A stretch of DNA of 64,000 nucleotides from Escherichia coli. Its GTDB lineage: Bacteria; Pseudomonadota; Gammaproteobacteria; Enterobacterales; Enterobacteriaceae. The stretch lies in assembly GCF_001677475.2 (NCBI RefSeq), contig NZ_CP015229.1; one strand, given 5' to 3'. Under the pieces are notes generated by a model that saw nothing but the letters and a program-made list of their open reading frames with translations, made no database searches and was not told the DNA's origin. The translations under genes were made by a program, and so were the position numbers. Positions 9,414-22,060 of this stretch are shown here, piece by piece. Each line of letters starts with the position of its first letter. Within the stretch, counting starts at the first letter, position 1.

Positions 9414-10046
9414 GTGGCACAACGCGGTGTAAACAAAGTCATCCTGATTGGTACCCTGGGGCAAGACCCGGAGATCAGGTATATACCAAATGGCGGCGCG
9501 GTCGGAAGACTCAGCATCGCAACGAATGAATCATGGCGCGACAAGCAAACGGACCAACAGAAAGAGCAAACAGAATGGCATAAAGTCGTTTTGTTCGGAA
9601 AACTTGCTGAAATTGCGAGTGAGTATTTACGAAAAGGTTCTCAGGTCTACATCGAAGGGAAACTTAAAACCCGTAAGTGGACAGATGACGCCGGTGTAGA
9701 ACGTTACACGACGGAAATTATCGTCAGCCAGGGCGGCACCATGCAAATGATCGGCGCTCGCCGTGACGATTCACAGTCCTCAAATGGCTGGGGGCAATCA
9801 AACCAACCTCAAAACCACCAGCAATACAGTGGTGGCGGTAAACCTCAGAGCAACGCCAATAACGAACCTCCAATGGACTTTGACGACGATATTCAAAAAC
9901 GACTGAAAGAAAAGCGGTGGTCCAGACGCCGACAAAAGCACGAACTCGCTAAAAAACGCCAAAGCTGGCAATGGCACGCGCTTTTCACGAAAAGAACACC
10001 CCGAGGCATTGCTTTCGCTGGTGGGAAAACATTCCTCCCCACCTGA
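9414..10046 (+). CDS. ssb: single-stranded DNA-binding protein with non-canonical C-terminus (basic 50-aa extension after DFDDDI instead of terminal PF)
   Basis: Track ORF; OB-fold region closely resembles E. coli/P1 SSB (VNKVILIG...TEWH...MDFDDDI); reading continues [14 protein letters not shown]... to a stop at 10046. Confidence 0.85.
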
Positions 10047-10083
10047 AGGCGCAATACATCAAATTTTAAGCAGAGAAAAGACT

Positions 10084-10737
10084 ATGAATAAAATGGCAAC
10101 GAAAGAGCTTTTTAAGTTCCTTCCCAAATACAAAGCTCACAAAATCGTTAGTGCATCGAAAATCAAAGATATCGAGATTATCTCATTGATTGATAATACC
10201 CCTGCTTGTGGCTATATCACATTAATGGACCCCCAAGGCGTAACGGTTCGTGTTGATGCAGCGTTTTTGCAAAAACACCGACCAGATACTGGCGGCTATC
10301 TGCTCGGTTATGAGGACGGTTATCTGTCCTATTCACCAGAAAAAACATTTGAAGAAGGCTTTAGTCGGACTAACGACTTCTTCGAAAATGAGGTATCGCT
10401 TAGCATTGAAGGTCACAATGGGGTGACATTCATTACAGCCAGGGACGTAACTATTGCTGCCGGTGGCATCATTACCACACAAGAAGAAATCGACCTTGAA
10501 GCAGCCGACTTCTCTGACGCGCTAATGTGGTTGAAGGAAGGCAAGAAAGTTGCCCGACGCGAGTGGAAAGGCGAAAAGCAATTCTGCTGGTTAGTTCTCG
10601 CTGGAAGCGTCAATTTACACGGCATTCACGTTCCTTATGGTGACCATTTTGTATTGAAAGATGCACAAAATATGGACAGCGTTTGGTTGCCGTCTGTGGA
10701 TGATTTACTGGCATGTGACTGGTTTGTAGTGGAGTGA
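10084..10737 (+). CDS. two-domain protein: unknown N-terminal domain plus C-terminal DUF2829-like (Tad2-family-like) domain
   Basis: Track ORF 10009-10737 trimmed to the ATG in frame; C-terminal motif ALMWLKEGKKVARREWKG ... DWFVVE resembles DUF2829. Confidence 0.55.
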   Translation: MNKMATKELFKFLPKYKAHKIVSASKIKDIEIISLIDNTPACGYITLMDPQGVTVRVDAAFLQKHRPDTGGYLLGYEDGYLSYSPEKTFEEGFSRTNDFFENEVSLSIEGHNGVTFITARDVTIAAGGIITTQEEIDLEAADFSDALMWLKEGKKVARREWKGEKQFCWLVLAGSVNLHGIHVPYGDHFVLKDAQNMDSVWLPSVDDLLACDWFVVE

Positions 10738-10743
10738 TTTAAC

Positions 10744-11526
10744 GTGGAAAATACTAAAGCAATTCAATACCGCCTGCGTAATGGTCAGAGTGTCGAAGTG
10801 ACCATCAATAATGATGGTGTGCCTGGCGAAAAGGTTTCGATCTCTGATCTGGCTATCGAAAAAACCATCATGTGCCACCTTGGCTTTACTGAAGAAGTGA
10901 GCAAAAAGCATGGTGTAGCAATCTGGAGCGCAATGGATACTGGTATGCGCAGATTCATTACTGCTCGTACCCCAGGGATGACCATGATGGACCTCATGCA
11001 GATTGCGCCGCTGTTTGAATGTGAGCCTTTAGATGTATTCAGCAATCCAGCTATCTGCCAGCAGTTATATGGTGAGATGAAACTCGCGGTTACCCCCATT
11101 GTGCTGCATGAAGGATCGCTTGCTGGCGTGTGGAAAGTGGAGCGTATTTCAAGCTACATGCCTTTCCATGTCAACGGCGTAATCACTGGTGAAAATCAAC
11201 CTGTTTCCGTTATAAAGTCAGACCTCAAGCGCGCAATTCTTGAAGCAAGTTGTCGAGTTGTCGGCCTGGGCAAACAGTCTTATGTTTCCTTCCCGGCTGG
11301 CCCTGAAGGCCCGGCAGAAATTCTGATTATGGATGCCGATCTGCTATGGCAAATACAGTTTCTGATTGGCAAAAGCATCATCCGCGCTGAAGAACTCGAT
11401 CAGTACATTACCTGCACGATGACGGATGAAGTCAAAAGTGTGGCTATAGCCAATGCCCGGAACCTATGTCGTGCTGCATTAACAGAACTGCAAGAAAACA
11501 CCACGGAAGAGGTGGAAAGTGATTAA
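10744..11526 (+). CDS. hypothetical protein, 260 aa
   Basis: Track ORF; GTG start behind a GGAG RBS; tightly packed with neighbours. Confidence 0.5.
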   Translation: MENTKAIQYRLRNGQSVEVTINNDGVPGEKVSISDLAIEKTIMCHLGFTEEVSKKHGVAIWSAMDTGMRRFITARTPGMTMMDLMQIAPLFECEPLDVFSNPAICQQLYGEMKLAVTPIVLHEGSLAGVWKVERISSYMPFHVNGVITGENQPVSVIKSDLKRAILEASCRVVGLGKQSYVSFPAGPEGPAEILIMDADLLWQIQFLIGKSIIRAEELDQYITCTMTDEVKSVAIANARNLCRAALTELQENTTEEVESD

Positions 11527-12613
11527 TCGTATACAGAATGAATCTGCCTGGTTAGCACTGATAGAACGGTATAAAGACAATTGGGAACTGGCAGCAAAAG
11601 AGTTGCTTGATATTGAGTTAACACCTCATCAAGCAAAAATTATTAACGCGATAAAGAACACCGGAGCCAAAGTCACTGCCACCACACCACATGGTATTGG
11701 GGAAACCTCTATTGTGGCAGTGATTAGCATCCTGCAAACAATACTGTATTCGTGTTCCCGTACAGTGGTTGTTTCTCCTGCGATTAACGATAGTCGAAAA
11801 ACAATAATTGACTATATGTTCCGTTATTGGGAGCGAGTTACCCAAAAACACCCTTTTCTTGGCAATTATTTCAGAATACACCCTGACAAAGGGTTGGTGC
11901 ATATCAGTGAAACATGGGGATGCGTCTATATAACCTATTGTCTGAATAACGAAGAGTCTCTGGCTGGTTTTACTGGACCGCACGATCTTTTCATCGTTAT
12001 TAACTCGGCGGAAATCAGCGATCGCGCTCATGCAGTGATAACTGGCAATTTAACCAATTATGACTCGCGCCTGCTGTTGCTGTCGAAACCATCGGAACGC
12101 GAGAAAGGGTACTTTTATGATTCGCATCACCGGTTGGCCCATAGTAAAAACAATCCTGCTGGTTTTTTCACGGCGATAACTCTAAACACAGAGGATTCAC
12201 CTCTCGTTTCTGAAGCATATCTTGAATTCAAAGCCAAAGAGTTTGGTGGACGCAATAGCGATGAATATCGCCGATTGATCTTGGGGAAATTCCCCGGGAT
12301 TCGGGAGTTGATGGAAAAGTCATCTGTTCCCCGTAATATGCACTTCACAATGACTGACGGTAGTAAATGGGTAGTGCCTACGATCGTGATCGCCAAACAC
12401 CATGCGAAACATCACGCTCAAAAACACAACTCCAGCACATTAGACTGGCTGAAGGCCTATACAATACCGTTATTCTCGGCAAACCATAACGCTATAACTG
12501 AATGGGCTAAACAAATCCCCTGGCAGGATGTGGCTGAAGAGGCGTTTGTCGAAAAACCACCAAGAGATTTGCACGAGCACTGTTGGCTGACATCAGAAAA
12601 AAGCTTCTCGTGA
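11519..12613 (+). CDS. hypothetical protein with terminase-large-subunit-ATPase-like region and non-canonical P-loop (GIGETS)
   Basis: Track ORF; local pattern LTPHQ ... TTPHGIGETS ... DLFIVINSAE ... ITGN parallels the Q-motif/Walker A/Walker B/motif III spacing of large terminases, but the Walker A lysine is replaced by Glu. Confidence 0.45.
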   Translation: MINRIQNESAWLALIERYKDNWELAAKELLDIELTPHQAKIINAIKNTGAKVTATTPHGIGETSIVAVISILQTILYSCSRTVVVSPAINDSRKTIIDYMFRYWERVTQKHPFLGNYFRIHPDKGLVHISETWGCVYITYCLNNEESLAGFTGPHDLFIVINSAEISDRAHAVITGNLTNYDSRLLLLSKPSEREKGYFYDSHHRLAHSKNNPAGFFTAITLNTEDSPLVSEAYLEFKAKEFGGRNSDEYRRLILGKFPGIRELMEKSSVPRNMHFTMTDGSKWVVPTIVIAKHHAKHHAQKHNSSTLDWLKAYTIPLFSANHNAITEWAKQIPWQDVAEEAFVEKPPRDLHEHCWLTSEKSFS

Positions 12614-12616
12614 GGT

Positions 12617-12643
12617 AAAAATCCCGCCGATTGGCGGGATTTC
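12617..12643. terminator. bidirectional intrinsic terminator between the accessory module and the dar operon end
   Basis: Hairpin ATCCCGCC-GATT-GGCGGGAT with flanking A and T runs. Confidence 0.6.
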
Positions 12644-12644
12644 T

Positions 12645-12953
12645 TCAATATACGATCTGGTCTACATGATCACCAAAATCATCGTCGTCGTCCTCATCGC
12701 CACCATCTACTGCTGGCCAATCAACAAACCAGCCAGCGTAAAGATGCAGCGTTCGGAGAACATCACTTGCGGGAGCATCAAGGGTGTTAACGAATCCCAT
12801 ATAGCTATTGGGATTTGCTCCAGCTATGGCTTCAGCGATCATGTCCTCGGTAATGTCACCGGAGATAATGCTTAAACGCCCGGAAACTTCTTCATTATCA
12901 TCAAATTCGATAATGGCATCTCCACCTAATGGCGCTGCGATTTTAATCTGCAT
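12645..12953 (-). CDS. small highly acidic protein (C-terminal DGGDEDDDDDFGDHVDQIVY), last gene of the dar operon
   Basis: Track ORF; overlaps the ddrB-like stop by 11 nt; function unknown. Confidence 0.5.
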   Translation of the reverse strand: MQIKIAAPLGGDAIIEFDDNEEVSGRLSIISGDITEDMIAEAIAGANPNSYMGFVNTLDAPASDVLRTLHLYAGWFVDWPAVDGGDEDDDDDFGDHVDQIVY

Positions 12954-13724
12954 TATTTAGCTCCTTTGCCACACCTAATAACAGTTCCAGCAATCCGTCA
13001 CCATTCATCAGTGATGCGGCAGCGGCCTCTTTGTCATGATACAACTGAAGAGCCATAGAGAATACTTCCGTTGCTGACGTTTTGGAAATAGTCGGTGATT
13101 TCTGCCGAATTTTCCCGGTGTTACTTACTGAGGCTGGCGGGTATACCTTCGCCATATAAATATTACTCAATCGAGATCTGAAGCACCATTCAGGCTTGCC
13201 ACGCCCACCGATATTGACGAAAGATGGCTTATCCCCTTCAACATTGGCCTTCAGGAATGACCGGGCTTTCTCTAACAAACCAGGGTTACTGTACTCAAGA
13301 TGATGACCCAGCTCGTGCCACAGTGCACTTGCATTTTCATCGTTCAAATTGACAGCAACAACACCATTTAGATTTGCATATGCCCTTCCCTGGTGGTGAA
13401 CTACCTTTGATAAGGTCGATATTTTCCCGCCGGTCAGGCGATAAATATCAGCAAGTTCCTTGCGCAGGTCTATCCCACCATTCTGTCCAGCGCGGGCTTC
13501 TTCCACTTCTTCTGTGATAAAAGAGTCGGCCCACTCAAGAGCTTTTTCTTCAGATACGGATGAGTTTGCGATCGCACTGTTCATGGCAGATAACACTTTC
13601 TCGTGGACCGAACCCATACTTCGCTGATTCATTTGCCAGCGTGTCTGCGGGTTATATGAGAATCGCTTAAGTAGTTGGTCAAGCTGCTCAAGTTCTTCTT
13701 CACTGACATACTTTTTAGCCTCAC
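12943..13724 (-). pseudogene. ddrB: 3' fragment of IS-interrupted ddrB-like gene (carries HELGHH zincin-like motif)
   Basis: Reading across the IS target duplication rejoins this frame to the upstream fragment (...PGIIGE|AKKYVSEEELEQL...). Confidence 0.6.
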
Positions 13725-13789
13725 TATTAGACGTCAACTAGTTTTGCCGACTCGCGCCAACTATACTGGCCGCACCCTTCAGGGCGACA

Positions 13790-14545
13790 TCAAGTCGCGC
13801 TTGTTACTGCCTTCGCTGTCTTTTTCCTGTAGCTTTCCCCTTTCAGTTCGAACATATATCCGTGATGGATCAGCCTGTCTGCCGCAGCCACCGCCATAGT
13901 CTCATCCACGAAGATGCTGCCCCACATGCTGAACGGATGGTTACTGGTTATCACCAGGCTCCCACGTTCATAGCGATGCGCTATTAACTCGAACAGCACA
14001 CCCGTTTCGGCACTATCGCGTTTGACATAGCCAAGATCATCCACCACTATCACCCGGTAGCGATCCAGTTTCAGTAGCAGCTCATTCAGTTTCAACTGAG
14101 CTCTGGCTTTACGTAGTTCCTGCAACAGCTCTCCTGCGCTGTAGAACCGGGCCCGGTAGCCCTGACCTACTACGCCATCCACGATCGCTGCCGCCAGATG
14201 GCTTTTCCCCAACCCGCTGGCTCCGAACAGCAGAACGTTTTCTCCTGCATCAACCCAGTCTGTCGTTTCACAGAGTTGCCGGAACTGAGCTCCATTCAGT
14301 TCCGGCACCTGACTGAAGTCGTATTCGCTCAGCGTTTTGGCAACTGGCAACCGGGCCTCCTTTTTATAACGACGCAGTTTTTCACTCTCGCGCCACAGGA
14401 GTTCTTCATTGCATAGCGTCAGAAGATAGCGCGATGGTGTCCAGCCTTCTGCCAGCGCTCGTTTTTCCAGAGCGTGCCATTCAGCTCCAACTCGTGTCAG
14501 GCGTAGTTTACGCAGGCTATGTTCAAGGTGATGGATATTGCTCAC
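13790..14545 (-). CDS. istB: IS21-family helper ATPase IstB
   Basis: Walker A GASGLGKSH, Walker B VIVVDDLGY, ITSNHPFSMW motif typical of IstB/DnaC-like AAA+ proteins. Confidence 0.9.
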   Translation of the reverse strand: MSNIHHLEHSLRKLRLTRVGAEWHALEKRALAEGWTPSRYLLTLCNEELLWRESEKLRRYKKEARLPVAKTLSEYDFSQVPELNGAQFRQLCETTDWVDAGENVLLFGASGLGKSHLAAAIVDGVVGQGYRARFYSAGELLQELRKARAQLKLNELLLKLDRYRVIVVDDLGYVKRDSAETGVLFELIAHRYERGSLVITSNHPFSMWGSIFVDETMAVAAADRLIHHGYMFELKGESYRKKTAKAVTSAT

Positions 14546-16041
14546 TGCGAACCTCCCTTGCCACGCAGTAGTTGCTCATAACTGCTCAGGTTATGCTGTA
14601 TCACATTGACTACCGGCAACGCCTTTTCTTTTATACCCAGGAAGCGCATCAGCCGGTGCAGATCCACGTTTCCCGGGGTATTCAGCATCTGCTCCATACC
14701 TTTTGCCACGACTGAGATATCGTCGTATCCTGCAGCCAGTTTCAGGGCATGTACCATCAGCCTTCCTGCCATATCGGGCTCCAGATGATTACATAAGCGA
14801 CGCCACAGCCTCCGCCATTCATCGTCCGGCAGGATGTCATTTCTCAGCGTTGCATGGCAGAACGCACCGGGCTTTTTTGCCAGACTGTCGATCACATGTC
14901 GGAAGTCGATACGACGGGCCCGCGTCTTCCCTTTTTCTGGTCTGACGCGAGGGCAGCTCATGACCTCGCTGCTGCCAACGTAACAGCTCAGACGATCGTC
15001 CCATAACCTGACCCGTAACAGTTGACCTACAAGCCGGGAAGGTACGCTGTAGACGACGTGCTTCACATTGATGGTACTGCTGCGACTAACCCTCACAGTC
15101 AGCTCATCATAGTCAGCACTGCGACGAAGCGGCAGCGGTTTCAGATGAAGACGTTCTTCCTTGACCAGATCCTGATTGTTACGGTTGTGCCGCATAACCT
15201 GCTGAGTGATGAAGGCCTGATATTCTTCTATGGTGCTGAAGTCGTTACTGCCCCGCAGTATCAGCGCCTGACAGATACGCCTTTTCAGATGTCCGTGGGC
15301 ACTTTCAACCGAGCCATTTTCGTGGCCCCGACCGGCATTATTGTGTACGCCCTGCATTCCGTAGTGCTGACAGAGAGTAGCATAACGCTCAGTCAGCTCG
15401 CGGCGTCCATCTTCGCCCTGTTGTTTCCATGCTGCCCTCAGGCTGTCCGTTTTATGTTCTACCGGCACTCCGCCCAGTTGTCCGAGGGCTTCCTGCAGGC
15501 CTTCAGCCAGAGCAGAGAAGCTCTCACCACCCAGAACAACCCGCATCCAGCTCCAGTGGCTCCATTCCAGACGGAAGTGATACAACTTATGCGCCAACAA
15601 CTTACCGGCGATGGTGACAACTACACCTTTCAGTTCAGTAAAGTCCGACAGGCCTCGCAGGCCGGGCTGATGTTGCTGGCGGAACATGACCTCCTGCTCT
15701 GTACCATACTGTAGTTTCCATTCGCGAACCCGCCGTTGCATTGTTCTTCGAAGGCTGTTGGGGTACTGGCCGGGATATTTATCCTGTAGCATCTCCAGTA
15801 GAGTTGTTGGTGTCAGAGCCGGCCTCTCTTTCAACAGAGGAACAAGCATGCTGTCCCACACAGCTTCCAGAGGATCTTTGCGTGTGCGCCAGTGCCGAAC
15901 ACTGTTTTTTGCCCACTCTCCTTTTTCGATCCGACGACCAGAACGGACTGAGATACCAGCCTTCATGGCCGAGATATGCTGAGTTATACCTTTCTTACGC
16001 TGAGTCATATAGTAACTGACCTGAGAAGTATTGAGCGTCAC
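14542..16041 (-). CDS. istA: IS21-family transposase IstA (true start may be an internal ATG)
   Basis: N-terminal HTH pattern like IS21 IstA, overlaps istB start in the typical istA-istB arrangement. Confidence 0.8.
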   Translation of the reverse strand: MTLNTSQVSYYMTQRKKGITQHISAMKAGISVRSGRRIEKGEWAKNSVRHWRTRKDPLEAVWDSMLVPLLKERPALTPTTLLEMLQDKYPGQYPNSLRRTMQRRVREWKLQYGTEQEVMFRQQHQPGLRGLSDFTELKGVVVTIAGKLLAHKLYHFRLEWSHWSWMRVVLGGESFSALAEGLQEALGQLGGVPVEHKTDSLRAAWKQQGEDGRRELTERYATLCQHYGMQGVHNNAGRGHENGSVESAHGHLKRRICQALILRGSNDFSTIEEYQAFITQQVMRHNRNNQDLVKEERLHLKPLPLRRSADYDELTVRVSRSSTINVKHVVYSVPSRLVGQLLRVRLWDDRLSCYVGSSEVMSCPRVRPEKGKTRARRIDFRHVIDSLAKKPGAFCHATLRNDILPDDEWRRLWRRLCNHLEPDMAGRLMVHALKLAAGYDDISVVAKGMEQMLNTPGNVDLHRLMRFLGIKEKALPVVNVIQHNLSSYEQLLRGKGGSQ

Positions 16042-16129
16042 GCCATTTCCTGTTGGATCATGTAAATGACACTCAGGTTACAAAACCGGCCAGAATAATC
16101 GGCGCCAGGCGGACTGAGTTATTGTCGTC

Positions 16130-18346
16130 TCATACCTCACCAATAATGCCAGGGAGAATATTGCCGTTAGGATTAAACGCTCGCGAAAGGAAGAGTTTCA
16201 GCGCCCCCATGCCCTCCGATGCTTCAATATCACCAATAACCCGGTTAACAATGGCCGCACTCTTCGGATTAGCATCCGCCAACGCTCTGGCTACAATTTG
16301 CAGGGACGATACGACCTCACGCTGCATATCCGTCCTGATCTCATCAATAAACTCTGGCGTTATGCCGTGCTCTTTAAGAATATCCCTGCCTTCCGCCGTT
16401 ACCCCATCGATATCACCGACATGTTTATTAACCCGACTTTGCAATGCCTTAAATGCCTTCAGAATTCCACGGGAATCATCCGCTTTACTAACGGCCTTCC
16501 TGAATGCTGGCAAGAAGTCTGAGTTAACCTCATTTTGTTGATCGGCCCACTGAATGGAGGCTTCTTTCATCTCGTCCAGAGTCAGATCACCCAACGCGGT
16601 ATGGTCTGTGAATATGAGCGACAACCTCTGAACCATTTCTGCCAATGGTGATGCCGAATGCGCCGCGCTAAGGAATGCTTTCACCCTGGTTGGGCGAATG
16701 GAAAACCAGTCAATAGCTGGTGGCATATCTCCGTTTTGTATCGCCTGCGCTATCTCATCAAAGCCGTCGCGCCCAAGGGAGGATGCGTGATTTAACAATC
16801 CGCGAAGTAACGAATTGCTGATACCGAATAATCGGCACCATTTATTCACGTCGGCAACAGGCATTCGAACAAAATGCGCAAGCACTTGTACAAGCTGTTC
16901 ATCCTGGGGATCTGTACGGGAAAGCAGCCTGATCAGATGAATAATGTCTTTGATGCCGGATGCCCGATGTAATAGCAAGCTGGTATATGGAGCAACACCG
17001 TTGTAACTACCGCCGGAAACGGACTCGAAAAGACCGCCGGATATCCCTTGCATGCCTTCGTTTTCCAGTTCCTGAGACACCTGGCGAAGGATATCCTGTA
17101 ACGACACATCGCCGCCGCCAAACATATCCCCCAGCGCCTGGCCCTGGTGCTGTAACTCATCATTGATACGTTGAGCCATCAACTTAAAGGCGGTGGCCAT
17201 ACGCTTCGCGCTACGGTTATTCGCGACGATGAACAACGCGAGTGCTTTCACTTCCGGGGCCGTTTCGCTGAACATATCCCCCTGAGCAATAACATCGGTA
17301 ATATGCTGGCCTGACTCCTTCGATTGCCTTACCAGGTCTACCGCATCTTTCAATGCCGCCAGCGCCTTTTTATCGAGGCTATCCGCTGTCTCAATGCCAT
17401 CAACAATAGTTGTCACAGCCTGCTTGTGCGCTTCTCCTGATAAAGCCTGCATCTGGACAAAATCATTGGCTGCCGCATTAAGCGCCGTCAGAACATTACG
17501 CATATCCGGATCAGGTTCTTCTGCAACCATCCTTACCAGGCGCGCATCCTTATATGCCTTGGCAAAGATCGCGTTTTGTATACGGTCAACAAGTTGCCGC
17601 GTTGGTCGCCCATCTTCCGTTACAAGGCCAGCAGCCTGTGTGGCACCAACTTGCGTCATGAATCCGCGAATAAACGCGTCATTACTGCGGCTAAGCAGAT
17701 CTCCGCTTTCTGACGGATTAAACAGCGCCATCATCGCCGGTGTTATGCTGTCGGCATCAACAAAAGCCTTTTCACTGGCTGCCATTTCCTGAAGATCAGA
17801 AATATTTGAGTCCTTGGCAAACTGAACGCGGTCAACCTTAGTTAACCGGCGGCGCACCAATACAGGAGCCGTCATTGATTCAACCTTTTCAGGTCGTATG
17901 CCGAATTCGGTCGCATGTTCAATCAGGTACTCACGATACCGATCCGCATTGCCGTCCTGATAGGCTTTAATGATTCCCATGGTCCGTCCATTACCTGACT
18001 CAACGGCATTGTCCTCACCAATTATCGGCGCGCCATGGCTGGATAAACCGGAATCGGTAAGCTGAGCAGGCCGCAAATCTTTGGATATCTGGTTAACCTG
18101 AAGAAGGCTGGATGCGCGGGTCCGGTCGCGCGGCTGAAGTTCCTGGGGATAGTCAGGATTAATTTTCCCATCCAGAGTATTGGATACCAAAAGAGCTGAG
18201 GCATCGACGATATCAAACGCTGTTTTTACCTCGTCTCCCTTCGCTGTCACCACATACGAAACCCGCCCATAATCGGGCAGGTTCTTAAGCAGCTCGATCA
18301 GCGTTTCTATGCTGGTGGCAATTACCACCTGATCGCTTAAGCTCAT
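16130..18346 (-). pseudogene. ddrB: 5' fragment of IS-interrupted ddrB-like gene; 738-codon ORF ending with an IS-encoded Val-stop
   Basis: ORF runs from the dar operon into the IS terminus and stops 2 codons inside; position after darA-ddrA matches P1. Confidence 0.6.
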
Positions 18347-18358
18347 CCCTGTTACGCC

Positions 18359-18724
18359 TTATGCTGCCTCTTCAATGTTGGCGGCTATCCATGCCGCCGT
18401 GTGCTGTTTAACCTGGTCCAGGTCGATGTATGTGCCAACATATTGACTCAAGTCCTGCAAGGTACCGATAAATGCATCTGTGCTCTGATCGACGAATTTA
18501 TCAGCCAGGAAATCAGCAACCAGTTTTGGCACACCATCATGTTCCGAAGGTTGTTTTTCCTCGCCACTACCACCGCCGGACGCGCCGTACCCCATCTGTT
18601 GCATGATCTGGTCAATTTCATCGCTGATATCCAGCAACTCCATGCCACTCGCGGTAGCAGCTTTGGACATCAGAGAATCCAACTTGTCGCTGAGGTCCAT
18701 TAACTCAATAGCTGATAGTGTCAT
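18359..18724 (-). CDS. DdrA-like small acidic protein
   Basis: Track ORF, overlaps darA stop; assigned by position. Confidence 0.4.
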   Translation of the reverse strand: MTLSAIELMDLSDKLDSLMSKAATASGMELLDISDEIDQIMQQMGYGASGGGSGEEKQPSEHDGVPKLVADFLADKFVDQSTDAFIGTLQDLSQYVGTYIDLDQVKQHTAAWIAANIEEAA

Positions 18725-20640
18725 GCCGCTACCCCCGCTTTCTGGATTGCTACCAGCAGATCAGCCAGGTGGCGAGCAGCGCCATTAACCAGCTCTTCGT
18801 TTTCCTCAAAACGCCCGGCAGCCTGAAGGGCTGCAATCGCTTCCCGGACATTACCCCGGGCGTTACGGATCTCCGCCATGTCAGTGCTTTGCATATCCAT
18901 CACGTTATTGAGATATTCAATGGCTTTATTAGCCTCTGCATCTGCTTCGCTAACCGTTTCATCAGGCTGTGCCGGGGCAGGTTCTGGCTGAGTAATCTCA
19001 CCGACTTCGGCCTGCAATGCATTGATCATGCTCTGCACCATTTTCTCGGTGCCAGCGCCCCCCGGAAACGCAATATTGGGGAAAGTTTTTTGAAACTGAG
19101 TTTTCAGCATTACGCGGAACTCGTCTGGTGAGCTGGTGGCCAGCTCCAGAGCTTTTTGTGCATATTTGCCAAACGGACCATTAGTAAGTGTCTTCGCCAG
19201 GAAGTCGAAAGAATCCTCGCGAGGCAATAACTTCAGGTCGTACTCACTCATTTGCTGATCAGAAAGCGGGGTATCGTAAGTAGCAATGCCGTAGCGTGCA
19301 TATTCATAATACGGGTCACCTTCATCAGGGCGCGGCAGAATTGCTTTGTTACCTTCAGGTATTGCGCCAGGGGCCGCCGGACGCATTTGCAGGGCATATC
19401 GATATGCACCTACAGAGACTTCTGGTTCAGGCGAAGAGCTACCGGTATCCTCCGCTGGTTCAGGTTCGACGTTTTCCGGTTTATGTTCTTCTGGTTGGAC
19501 CAGGTATTCCGATACATTACCCGCTTTATAGGCTTTAAACAGCTTGCCGATCGCATCTGCCATGTCCACACCCTGTATGGATTTAGCCTTGATCATGTAC
19601 ACGCTGCCATCCGAATCGGTTAACTGGATATACCCTTCGCCGTCCTCAATGAATTGCTTCATTGATGCTCCATTACTGAGCGTCACTTCCCCGTTCATAT
19701 GCATACGATTTTTGATACTGGCAAGGCGATCCGTCAGCGCGCGCGAGTGCCCACCAGTCATCCCCGCTGGATCAATGGTATCGCGCCCACCTGTGCGATT
19801 GAGCTGATCAATCTCCGTCTGCAAACGCTCATTCTCTTCATAAAGAGAATCCGCTTCCGATGCAACAGCGTTAATTTTCTGCTCCAGATCTACCTTCTGC
19901 CCTTCTACCGCTGCCACCTGATCCGCGAGGTCGCTCATGGCATCCTCTTTCTGGTCACTGTCAGCCTGTAGTTGGGTTATTTCATCAACCAGGGCTTTTT
20001 TCTTCTTCTGCGCACGCTGGAATTTTGCCGAGTTTTTCTCTGCAAGGTTGGCAAGTTTCATGGTGACCTGCGCCAGCGTCATATCACGTCCACTCATCGG
20101 AGCAACGGTGTGAGTAACGTCTTTTTTATTCAGTAAGAACTGGAAAGCAACCAGCGTATCGCTATTGGTGATCCGGTTTTCCGCTGTCGGGCTATGAAAC
20201 AGAATGCTGATAGTCTGACCATCACTGAGCGGAATAATGGCTGGCAGGACCGGCAGCCCGTTAACGTTACGTGCCCGGCCAATTTCAGCACCGCCGATCG
20301 CGCGCGCGCCGCTCTGGGCCACCTCCCCCGTTTTATCACTCCCCGCAGAGATTCCGGTACCATTCAGCTTCTGGTTCAATGCCCGGACAAATGCCTGCAT
20401 GGTCCGGTGTAACTGCAAACGAGTAGAACTAATCGCCTCCAGTAAATCCGTAGCACACCAGTGGATCGGCGTGTCATAGAAGAACGTAGCCTCGATTTCC
20501 TCCAGGGTGTTGGATTCCGTCATCAGATAGCGGTCCTCACCGGCCATTAATGCGCGATATTCATCATCAGTCACTGGCGGGGGAAGCACGTCAAGCCCAG
20601 GCTTGATCGTCACCCCTTTATTGATATTTAACTGTTCCAT
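18721..20640 (-). CDS. darA: DarA-like capsid-delivered antirestriction protein, 639 aa
   Basis: Size and position (hdf-darA-ddrA-ddrB) match P1; coiled-coil central region. Confidence 0.6.
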   Translation of the reverse strand: MEQLNINKGVTIKPGLDVLPPPVTDDEYRALMAGEDRYLMTESNTLEEIEATFFYDTPIHWCATDLLEAISSTRLQLHRTMQAFVRALNQKLNGTGISAGSDKTGEVAQSGARAIGGAEIGRARNVNGLPVLPAIIPLSDGQTISILFHSPTAENRITNSDTLVAFQFLLNKKDVTHTVAPMSGRDMTLAQVTMKLANLAEKNSAKFQRAQKKKKALVDEITQLQADSDQKEDAMSDLADQVAAVEGQKVDLEQKINAVASEADSLYEENERLQTEIDQLNRTGGRDTIDPAGMTGGHSRALTDRLASIKNRMHMNGEVTLSNGASMKQFIEDGEGYIQLTDSDGSVYMIKAKSIQGVDMADAIGKLFKAYKAGNVSEYLVQPEEHKPENVEPEPAEDTGSSSPEPEVSVGAYRYALQMRPAAPGAIPEGNKAILPRPDEGDPYYEYARYGIATYDTPLSDQQMSEYDLKLLPREDSFDFLAKTLTNGPFGKYAQKALELATSSPDEFRVMLKTQFQKTFPNIAFPGGAGTEKMVQSMINALQAEVGEITQPEPAPAQPDETVSEADAEANKAIEYLNNVMDMQSTDMAEIRNARGNVREAIAALQAAGRFEENEELVNGAARHLADLLVAIQKAGVAA

Positions 20641-20641
20641 G

Positions 20642-21253
20642 TTAATTTCCTGCTTTCAGTTGCTTAAGACGACGTTTGAGTTCGCCATTCCGTGCCTTTT
20701 CGTTATTGAGTCGGCCCGTCTCCTTATCCAGCTTCGCCCGCAAATCAGTGATCTGCTGTTGATTGAAAGACACCGAATTCTGCGCGGACTTATAAGCGGC
20801 AACCACCTGAGCATTCCGCTGTTTTGCTTCTTGCAGGCGCTGAAAGTTGGATTTAACTGCCGGTTTCTTGTCTACCGGATTGGCAACACGCTTCGCTTTG
20901 GCGATCAGTGATTTCTGGAATTTTGCGGAGTTTTTGCGGGCCGCCTGTCCCATGACGGTACCAAGCGTCTTGATATCCGGCGACTGAGCGTTAGGAATAG
21001 CTTTTCCATTCAGTTTCACAGACGATATATCGCCAGTATCGTTTACCTGTATGGCAAGAATTTGTCCGTCGTTAAGAACCAGCTTTGCGGTTTTAACTTT
21101 AACGCCATCTTTCGTTGTTGCGCGGTTGCTGGAGTCAACCTCAATTACCGTAACACCGGTTTTATTGATCGCCGCGATAAGGGATTTCAGCCCCTTTTCA
21201 TTAACCTGGTCAAAATCGACCGTTGCATACTTATTTTTCGTCATCTGACACAT
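20642..21253 (-). CDS. Hdf-like protein (dar operon)
   Basis: Track ORF directly upstream of darA; coiled-coil basic protein. Confidence 0.45.
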   Translation of the reverse strand: MCQMTKNKYATVDFDQVNEKGLKSLIAAINKTGVTVIEVDSSNRATTKDGVKVKTAKLVLNDGQILAIQVNDTGDISSVKLNGKAIPNAQSPDIKTLGTVMGQAARKNSAKFQKSLIAKAKRVANPVDKKPAVKSNFQRLQEAKQRNAQVVAAYKSAQNSVSFNQQQITDLRAKLDKETGRLNNEKARNGELKRRLKQLKAGN

Positions 21254-21674
21254 CCTGTGCGAGATTTATTACGTAACTTCTGCGGATTTGCTGAGTAACA
21301 GGGAAAATCCGATACAACGGGTTAATGAACGAGTCGCCATGCGTAACCATGACGTTGAAATGCCACAGTCGCTCTCCTTTACCCATATATTCAGTGGGTA
21401 TGTACAACCATTCACTGTTTTCGCCCTGTTCAGCTGACGTCAGACAACGTTGTTCGCCTTCAATCACTGTCGTCGGCTTCTGAACATCGCGGATCCAATA
21501 TCTGACCGTTGCGCCGCGCAAAAACGGGAATTTAGACCGGTATTTGAACGGCACCCGGATGAAACCCGGTTTAATTTCCACATCACCAAGTTCTAAATGC
21601 GTGATGTCCTTGCGTTTTAGCAAATAGCGATCGGCTAAGGCTAACGCAAGAACGCATACACCCCAGCCAATCAT
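21231..21674 (-). CDS. LydB-like putative antiholin/lysis regulator with N-terminal signal-anchor
   Basis: Position after holin-like gene at the head of the dar operon. Confidence 0.4.
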   Translation of the reverse strand: MIGWGVCVLALALADRYLLKRKDITHLELGDVEIKPGFIRVPFKYRSKFPFLRGATVRYWIRDVQKPTTVIEGEQRCLTSAEQGENSEWLYIPTEYMGKGERLWHFNVMVTHGDSFINPLYRIFPVTQQIRRSYVINLAQDVSDDEK

Positions 21675-22000
21675 TTCCCGCCTCCCTTTTTCACCAAACT
21701 TGTAAGAACATTCAGAATGCTATCGATATTCACTCGTTTCATCCCTGAAATCACCTCATGACCGTTATTGCTGGCTATCGTTACCATTAAGTACGTAATT
21801 GATAACTCCCAGCCCTCGTGTTGCCCCAATAGGTACGCCACCGCGCCAGCTGTCACTGCAACAAAGATCTCCGTAACCAATCCCAACAAATTGCCAGACT
21901 GGCGACCGTCTCGGACATCCATCAGGAACGTGCCTATCCCACCAATTACTGAAAGCAGGAGCGCAATAGCAACTGGAGCTAATTCCTGTGTGTCAAGCAC
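21671..22000 (-). CDS. putative holin (LydA-like), three predicted transmembrane segments
   Basis: 109 aa, hydrophobic helices, charged C-terminus. Confidence 0.5.
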   Translation of the reverse strand: MLDTQELAPVAIALLLSVIGGIGTFLMDVRDGRQSGNLLGLVTEIFVAVTAGAVAYLLGQHEGWELSITYLMVTIASNNGHEVISGMKRVNIDSILNVLTSLVKKGGGK

Positions 22001-22060
22001 AAGTTCCCTCCTACGTTGTCAGGAGGTAATGGTATGCAAAGTAACTTCTCATCTGGTTGT

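Follow-up and report, generated by a model that had tools for sequence, protein, structure and literature searches.

hxr, the last gene of the P1-type darA operon, encodes a strongly acidic small protein that is a candidate partner of the DdrB C-terminal domain

What does a strongly acidic protein of 102 amino acids (aa), encoded by the last gene of the darA antirestriction operon of a P1-like phage-plasmid, contribute to that operon? The question is raised by a stretch of 64,000 nucleotides (nt) from Escherichia coli contig NZ_CP015229.1 (assembly GCF_001677475.2), which was analyzed as a whole and is referred to here as the window. A preliminary description of the window had singled out this small open reading frame (ORF) and suggested that its product is a DNA mimic directed against restriction. 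The ORF is hxr (P1_gp021, YP_006490 in the annotation of the P1 reference genome), an already catalogued gene of the P1-like phage-plasmid. DNA of the hxr region is 98 to 99% identical to that of phage P1 and P1-like phages, and the protein has 98% identity to P1 Hxr and 100% identity to alleles in vB_EcoM-813R1 and many E. coli plasmids. Residues 1 to 102 matched PHROG 2292 at profile positions 1 to 105 of 105 (E = 2e-59), and tblastn with Hxr matched 20 phage records as well as 503 plasmids, the majority from E. coli. Our tentative reading is that Hxr is a dedicated cognate partner, chaperone or inhibitor-like, of the C-terminal HExxH domain of DdrB, the product of the gene upstream, with the acidic tail of Hxr left free. 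The strongest signal is the absolute, translationally coupled linkage of hxr to ddrB, and specifically to the part encoding its C-terminal domain, across 172 loci.

The following features make up hxr and its borders in the window.

12645 to 12953, minus strand: hxr coding sequence (P1_gp021 orthologue), 102 aa, ATG start, from the ORF list and its translation.
12714 to 12953, minus strand: predicted folded core, residues 1 to 80, with three beta strands, two helices, and a short strand in the AlphaFold2 model.
12648 to 12713, minus strand: predicted disordered polyacidic tail, residues 81 to 102, net charge −10, from AlphaFold2 per-residue confidence (pLDDT, predicted local distance difference test) and the variable Asp run.
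12943 to 12953, minus strand: 11-nt overlap of hxr and ddrB (ddrB stop codon TAA at 12943 to 12945, hxr ATG at 12951 to 12953).
12961 to 12966, minus strand: Shine-Dalgarno sequence AAGGAG of hxr, 7 nt 5′ of the ATG, in the Lys-Glu codons near the end of ddrB.
12617 to 12644, both strands: bidirectional terminator-like hairpin directly 3′ of the hxr stop codon, at the end of the darA operon, from fold energies.
12943 to 13737, minus strand: C-terminal remnant of ddrB, a 264-aa ORF with an HELGH (HExxH) metallopeptidase-like motif, from PHROG 2299.

Hxr holds 23 Asp and Glu residues and three Lys and Arg residues, for a net charge of −20 and a computed pI of about 4, and the translated ORF ends in ...DGGDEDDDDDFGDHVDQIVY, as the preliminary description had it. 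At −0.196 charge per residue (mean, +0.04; standard deviation, 0.06), it ranks first in acidity among the 184 window ORFs of at least 80 aa, and it alone has a 22-residue stretch that contains 11 or more acidic residues. Second in acidity is the 121-aa product of ddrA (18359 to 18724, minus strand; −0.13 charge per residue), and small acidic proteins may recur in the Dar operon. Fold energies of the hairpin behind the hxr stop codon are −19.3 kcal/mol for the minus strand (z = −5.3) and −20.7 kcal/mol for the plus strand (z = −5.0), and so strong a hairpin at this point makes hxr the final cistron of the operon. A promoter scan found no sigma-70-like promoter between 12400 and 14000, so a separate hxr promoter is not proposed.

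The Hxr family is small, with 19 representatives among 1.8 billion proteins and 35 clusters reached by a profile search among 5.8 billion proteins. Apart from fragments and one tandem duplicate, its members are stand-alone proteins of about 95 to 105 aa, with no fusions and no other genomic context, and their hosts are P1-like elements of Escherichia, Salmonella, Citrobacter, Enterobacter, Klebsiella, Hafnia, and Rosenbergiella (Enterobacterales). A homologue on the same strand was located at the ddrB end in 172 of 172 loci, which together hold 43 distinct Hxr sequences. These include 16 divergent IMG/VR loci that were collected by a search with the conserved DdrB C terminus and not with Hxr. 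The order lydB-hdf-darA-ddrA-ddrB-hxr was kept in independent metagenomic contigs whose Hxr is only 35 to 46% identical. An hxr/ddrB overlap of 11 to 14 nt was conserved in the divergent loci L003 to L012, and AAGGAG or AAGGAA was present in the Lys-Glu codons of the DdrB end (...LGCMKE(L/I/M)xNAx) in all divergent loci. Two further points of the preliminary description, the translational coupling of the small ORF to a ddrB-like gene and its place at the end of the dar operon, are thereby borne out: the overlap and the Shine-Dalgarno sequence persist at this level of divergence, and hxr, followed in the window by the hairpin, is the last gene of this operon in every P1-like element examined.

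Because the ratio of nonsynonymous to synonymous substitution rates (dN/dS) of hxr was 0.06 to 0.22 in comparisons with unsaturated synonymous sites, hxr is a real gene under purifying selection. The ratio was lower in the core (0.09 to 0.22) than in the tail (0.3 to 0.5) in most comparisons, with one pair reversed. One metagenomic P1-like contig (L173, 6001 to 6555) carries a 184-aa tandem duplication of Hxr at the usual site behind ddrB, in which the first copy has a short acidic stub only and the second copy has the full tail.

In the AlphaFold2 model, pLDDT was about 83 to 90 in the core (69 for the block of residues 21 to 30) and below 50 at tail residues 83 to 87 and 93 to 102, and AFDB models of other family members agreed with it (template modeling [TM] score, 0.69 to 0.84). 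These models point to an orphan alpha/beta fold followed by a disordered polyacidic tail (residues 83 to 102). The core is marked by the conserved motifs G-x-V-N, V-L-R-x-L, and G-W-x-V-x-W-P. The invariant or near-invariant positions (P8, G32, S50, G53, V55, N56, L66, R67, W75, W79, and P80) are hydrophobic, structural, or of an interface type, and not acidic. Such non-acidic conservation is as expected of a specific protein interface, and we count it in favor of the partner reading. Acidity is kept in every clade, with net charges of −9 to −11 in the tail and −5 to −11 in the core. The tail accounts for about half of the negative charge; its composition is kept and its sequence is not. Among otherwise near-identical P1-like alleles (loci L013 to L172), the Asp run of the tail (window 12670 to 12700) varied from D4 to D9, as expected of slippage in GAT/GAC repeats. 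At its tip, the tail almost always has Asn, His, or Tyr behind a hydrophobic residue (...IVY, IVN, VVN, PIH, NVN). In the same loci, the tail end differs in a few alleles (...EEVFSDETVNQLLY), and the tip is frameshifted in one.

The gene to which hxr is coupled encodes a large protein of which the window retains two pieces. In the P1 annotation, the operon reads LPdar-lydA-lydB-hdf-darA-ddrA-ddrB-hxr and is expressed late, and intact ddrB orthologues carry the Pfam domain ddrB-ParB. The 264-aa remnant next to hxr corresponds to positions 736 to 995 of 995 in PHROG 2299 (E = 1e-154), and residues H141, E142, H145, and H146 of the DdrB C-terminal domain are invariant. In the description by Iyer and colleagues, this is a metallopeptidase domain of the zincin-like kind that occurs in injected “polyvalent” proteins, and processing takes DdrB from about 108 to 76 kDa (PMC5512222). 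The C-terminal fragment gave nothing significant in Pfam or among PDB sequences, so the metallopeptidase assignment rests on the invariant HExxH motif and that study. Upstream of the remnant, ddrB is interrupted by an insertion sequence (IS).

13725 to 16134 (approximate), minus strand: 2.4-kb ISEc10 (IS21-family) insertion splitting ddrB, in the same orientation as the operon, delimited by the gap in P1 homology.
13790 to 14545, minus strand: istB, 100% identical to annotated ISEc10 istB.
14542 to 16041, minus strand: istA, from the ORF list.
16130 to 18346, minus strand: N-terminal part of ddrB, a 738-aa ORF with the ParB-like region, from blastn against P1 ddrB.

By blastn, P1 homology covers 12647 to 13724 and starts again at 16135; 6 bp of P1 sequence are duplicated on both sides of the IS, and the insertion follows about codon 735 of ddrB. 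Hxr of P1 is the same gene at the same site behind ddrB, and the window differs by the split of ddrB. As a consequence of the split, the ORF directly 5′ of hxr here is only the 264-aa C-terminal remnant of DdrB. Read-through transcription from the ISEc10 side into hxr is plausible, since the IS is oriented as the operon. None of the plasmids in PLSDB shares the ISEc10/ddrB junction. The N-terminal DdrB fragment left by the insertion is about the size of the processed 76-kDa DdrB.

A possible contact between Hxr and the DdrB C-terminal domain was modeled with AlphaFold2 as a fusion of the window DdrB C-terminal fragment, a 30-residue Gly/Ser linker, and Hxr, using a paired alignment of 15 rows. 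The fusion model had a predicted TM score (pTM) of 0.74, against about 0.58 for mutually unplaced domains by our own rough estimate, and a mean pLDDT of 75.9. Within it, the pLDDT of the Hxr core was about 75 to 86 in most blocks (57 at fusion residues 311 to 320), a new short strand formed at Hxr residues 81 to 83 that was absent from the model of Hxr alone, and the poly-Asp tail was still disordered. The model, as indirect evidence, suggests docking of the Hxr core onto the DdrB C-terminal domain, with the tail left free.

A small gene behind this domain is also found outside the P1 lineage. The DdrB C-terminal fragment had distant tblastn homologues (E = 2e-9 to 1e-2) in Vibrio Ackermannviridae phages, where they form the C termini of proteins of 630 to 1207 aa and conserve both HExxH and STE(V/I)(L/I)SMGLQ. 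A tightly coupled ORF of 87 to 130 aa follows the DdrB-C-like gene directly in seven of seven such phages (VAP7, D506, 207E48.1, K476, K447, YC, and GR28A; loci L174 to L180). The two genes overlap by 4 nt in four of the seven (ATGA in D506) and are separated by 1 to 2 nt in the other three, and both junctions read (VAP7 and D506) have a Shine-Dalgarno-like element within the final codons of the large gene. The small Vibrio proteins are non-acidic (net charge, +4 to −7) and have no polyacidic tail. The one from VAP7 (QDB73363, mis-annotated as “tetraspanin-15”) had the best TM score to the Hxr model among the BFVD matches (0.43/0.47), but with a Foldseek E value of 3.2. An hhalign comparison of Hxr with the small Vibrio proteins was not significant (probability, 0.3%) and aligned only the L..xG(W/Y)xV motif. 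We therefore treat the Vibrio ORFs as positional analogues of Hxr, not homologues. Their position suggests that a small partner of the DdrB-C-like domain came first and that the P1 lineage acquired the acidity later. In the Vibrio phages, the DdrB-C-like domain and its small ORF may be a general “domain plus small partner” module. A wider proposal, which we regard as doubtful, is that Hxr and the small Vibrio ORFs represent an unrecognized class of partners (inhibitor, immunity-like, or chaperone) for the HExxH domain of injected “polyvalent” proteins, and that the P1 lineage gained a polyacidic, nucleic-acid-mimicking tail, yielding a new orphan-fold anti-defense accessory factor.

If Hxr is a partner of DdrB, it would be produced late in infection and, through translational coupling, in step with DdrB. 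The alpha/beta core, with its two invariant Trp residues, G-x-V-N, and V-L-R-x-L, would bind the C-terminal HExxH domain, and the polyacidic disordered tail of about 20 residues would remain free. In the producing cell, Hxr might then act as a chaperone or immunity-like regulator until DdrB has been processed and loaded into proheads; it would hold the DdrB C-terminal domain inactive, in solution, or away from DNA, and might do the same for other Dar proteins that bind nucleic acids. The free tail may keep the complex soluble or away from nucleic acid, or engage another basic partner. Hxr itself would probably be left behind and not injected. Of these steps, Hxr-DdrB binding is suggested by an indirect AlphaFold signal, and we infer the direction of the effect (inhibitor or chaperone) and the non-packaging of Hxr. 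Two published observations are counted in favor of the partner reading. One is that hxr was scored as non-essential in a CRISPR interference screen (PMC10695390), the only experimental statement on the gene; the searchable literature reports no function for hxr and no hxr-specific mutant phenotype. The other is that Hxr is absent from the list of P1 virion proteins identified with liquid chromatography coupled to tandem mass spectrometry (LC-MS/MS) and from its supplement (PMC9024508), where a protein with only three tryptic sites could have been missed.

Several considerations weigh against Hxr as a DdrB partner. The fusion model comes without predicted aligned error, contacts, or a negative control, the tether may bias docking, and the alignment is shallow; a profile search with the DdrB C terminus yielded too few proteins to deepen it. 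The DdrB C-terminal domain is not basic (net charge, −5 to +5), so the acidity of Hxr is unexplained by that interface. Synteny inside one phage lineage can also be simple inheritance, and homology between Hxr and the small proteins of Vibrio phages is not demonstrable (hhalign probability of 0.3%, Foldseek E value of 3.2). The absence of Hxr from the virion proteome is a weak argument when three tryptic sites leave essentially one convenient peptide, and DdrA, a small acidic protein of the same operon, is packaged, so that Hxr could be too.

Public records assign Hxr a different function altogether. The P1 annotation calls hxr a “possible repressor; homolog of Xre” on the strength of 28% identity over about 58 residues in a 2004 annotation note, and the label has been carried onward in later records as “putative repressor” or “Repressor.” That alignment is the sole basis for an Xre-like transcriptional repressor, and the annotation is wrong: no test that we ran gave it support. 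Pfam, HTH_3 included, had no match to Hxr even at E values up to 10, and neither Hxr nor the DdrB C-terminal fragment had a match in NCBIfam or PADLOC. Among PDB sequences, the best match to Hxr was RapA (E = 0.2), which is not significant, and the RapA C terminus was rejected as a relative. Three long matches from the representative search (P0020, P0026, and P0027) were likewise set aside as spurious; they are FG-GAP/VCBS repeat proteins that align only at a low-complexity GD(I/V)T..A.....G pattern. The Hxr model opens with three beta strands and has no helix-turn-helix (HTH), neither the all-helical five-helix fold nor the basic DNA-binding surface of such repressors is seen, and the fold search returned no HTH proteins. 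DNA binding cannot be reconciled with a net charge of −20, and hxr is late and operon-terminal. A repressor of the Xre type is, in our view, extremely improbable. The preliminary description had named homology to a regulatory protein as evidence against its own idea, and no such homology was found, the Xre label having failed in Pfam, in the AlphaFold2 model, and in the fold search.

The DNA-mimic idea itself can take two forms. In one, Hxr would be a free-standing, trans-acting mimic of the Ocr or ArdA type that blocks the DNA groove of type I restriction-modification enzymes. Hxr resembles these mimics in its small size and extreme acidity, and hxr sits in an antirestriction operon; like Hxr, Ocr (T7 gp0.3) and ArdA are small, strongly acidic, encoded on mobile elements, and tied to evasion of type I restriction. 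The search for sequence and structural similarity to Ocr/ArdA-type mimics that the preliminary description had proposed was run and gave neither a sequence nor a fold match. The Pfam Ocr and ArdA families had no match at E values up to 10, PDB sequences had none, and the model shows neither the all-alpha elongated fold of Ocr nor the three-domain fold of ArdA. Missing homology is not decisive by itself, given that known DNA mimics are mutually non-homologous (PMC12707154). The architecture also differs, however: in the rigid dimers of Ocr and ArdA, carboxylates imitate the DNA backbone, whereas in Hxr half of the charge is carried by a disordered tail that varies in sequence and length, and the conserved residues are non-acidic. 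To shield incoming DNA, a mimic has to be injected or else synthesized as soon as the DNA enters. Ocr and ArdA are trans-acting proteins whose expression comes first upon entry, whereas hxr belongs to a late operon under LPdar, according to the P1 annotation, and Dar acts in cis. In classical co-infection experiments, Dar protected only in cis, on packaged DNA, and a Dar+ phage failed to rescue a co-infecting Dar− phage (PMC12707154), which speaks against a diffusible inhibitor of the enzyme as part of the Dar phenotype. An Ocr-like role of Hxr is disfavored, and we consider it very unlikely.

The second form, which we think unlikely, is that Hxr is a virion-delivered acidic Dar component, injected with the DNA, possibly on DdrB, and serving as a cis decoy against type I enzymes or bacteriophage exclusion (BREX). 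Late expression fits a packaged protein, local action is compatible with the cis-only behavior of Dar, and the acidic tail may serve as a nucleic-acid-like decoy. Furthermore, hxr closes the antirestriction operon in all relatives, its product is strongly negative with both core and tail acidic in every clade, and DdrA, the second most acidic protein in the window, is a packaged Dar protein. With K4, R26, and R67 as its only tryptic sites, Hxr yields few peptides (e.g., IAAPLGGDAIIEFDDNEEVSGR), and LC-MS/MS could miss it. However, it was not detected in a virion proteome that contained all six known Dar proteins, including the 13-kDa DdrA (PMC9024508). Reviews and a 2026 structural study list six Dar proteins, with Hxr not among them, and no Hxr phenotype has been reported. 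Hxr also lacks fold similarity to any DNA mimic, and its positional analogues in Vibrio phages are non-acidic. What stands of the preliminary DNA-mimic proposal is therefore the acidity of the protein and its place as the conserved last gene of an antirestriction operon, and what does not is the Ocr/ArdA type, given the charge in the tail, the late promoter, the cis-only action of Dar, the non-acidic invariant residues, and the lack of Hxr among the virion proteins detected.

Other known systems resemble Hxr in part. Colicin DNase-Im, barnase-barstar, and CdiA-CT/CdiI pairs likewise have a small acidic coupled ORF right behind the C-terminal enzymatic domain of a large delivered protein, and the two always occur together. 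This effector-immunity or enzyme-inhibitor comparison is not a claim of membership; Hxr has no homology to any immunity family, and the likeness is one of gene arrangement only. We know of no toxicity of the DdrB C-terminal domain. Single-stranded DNA-binding protein (SSB) and T7 gp2.5 have, as Hxr does, a disordered polyacidic tail with a hydrophobic end, which could fill DNA-binding or partner clefts. Hxr, in contrast, has no oligonucleotide/oligosaccharide-binding (OB) fold, its last residue is mostly Asn, His, or Tyr and not the essential Phe of SSB, and the tip motif differs. The SSB-tail analogy was dropped for Hxr, whose terminal residue is not Phe and whose tip is not of the D-D-D-I-P-F type. 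Closer at hand, DdrA is a Dar system member from the same operon with a similar size (121 aa) and an acidic composition, but it has been found in virions and is reported to act against EcoA, neither of which applies to Hxr, and we saw no sequence relationship between the two. With the Dar components, Hxr shares being encoded in the darA operon and being conserved with it.

P1 Dar is the classic case of virion-delivered antirestriction and has been described as a system of six proteins, excluding Hxr; to these, hxr adds a seventh gene, whose conservation with the operon equals that of the known components. If Hxr controls DdrB, this would help explain how injected polyvalent metallopeptidase domains are restrained in the cell that produces them, how the loading of Dar proteins into the capsid is ordered, and whether published ddrB deletion phenotypes include polar effects on hxr. 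Correction of the annotation also matters in practice, as the repressor label is present on more than 500 plasmids of clinical Enterobacterales.

The rest of the operon was matched to P1 as well. Window positions 16135 to 22051 aligned without gaps to positions 10073 to 15989 of locus L001 (blastn against P1; 98.3% identical), and the genes between the promoter and ddrB were assigned by matching ORFs to the P1 annotation.

22029 to 22047, minus strand: putative late promoter LPdar, transferred by homology from the P1 annotation via the ungapped alignment.
21671 to 22000, minus strand: lydA, ORF matched to the P1 annotation.
21231 to 21674, minus strand: lydB, ORF matched to the P1 annotation.
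20642 to 21253, minus strand: hdf, ORF matched to the P1 annotation.
18721 to 20640, minus strand: darA, ORF matched to the P1 annotation.
18359 to 18724, minus strand: ddrA, ORF matched to the P1 annotation.

Beyond the operon end, two differences from P1 were observed in the window. The P1 isaA-IS1-isaB region is replaced at 10009 to 12613 (plus strand) by three ORFs (242, 260, and 364 aa), of which the middle one is isaA-like and the 364-aa one has a PHROG 5902 match and a weak terminase-large-subunit-like match; the same three-ORF arrangement is present in vB_EcoM-813R1. The P1-type ssb gene (9414 to 10046, plus strand) has a 15-bp deletion relative to P1 near 9890 to 9900 (CGTTTTGAATGTGTA). 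The stop codon and the two codons before it, which encode Pro-Phe of the essential DDDIPF tip, are lost through this deletion, and the ORF runs on to 210 aa, with a basic extension of 49 residues in place of the protein-interaction tip.

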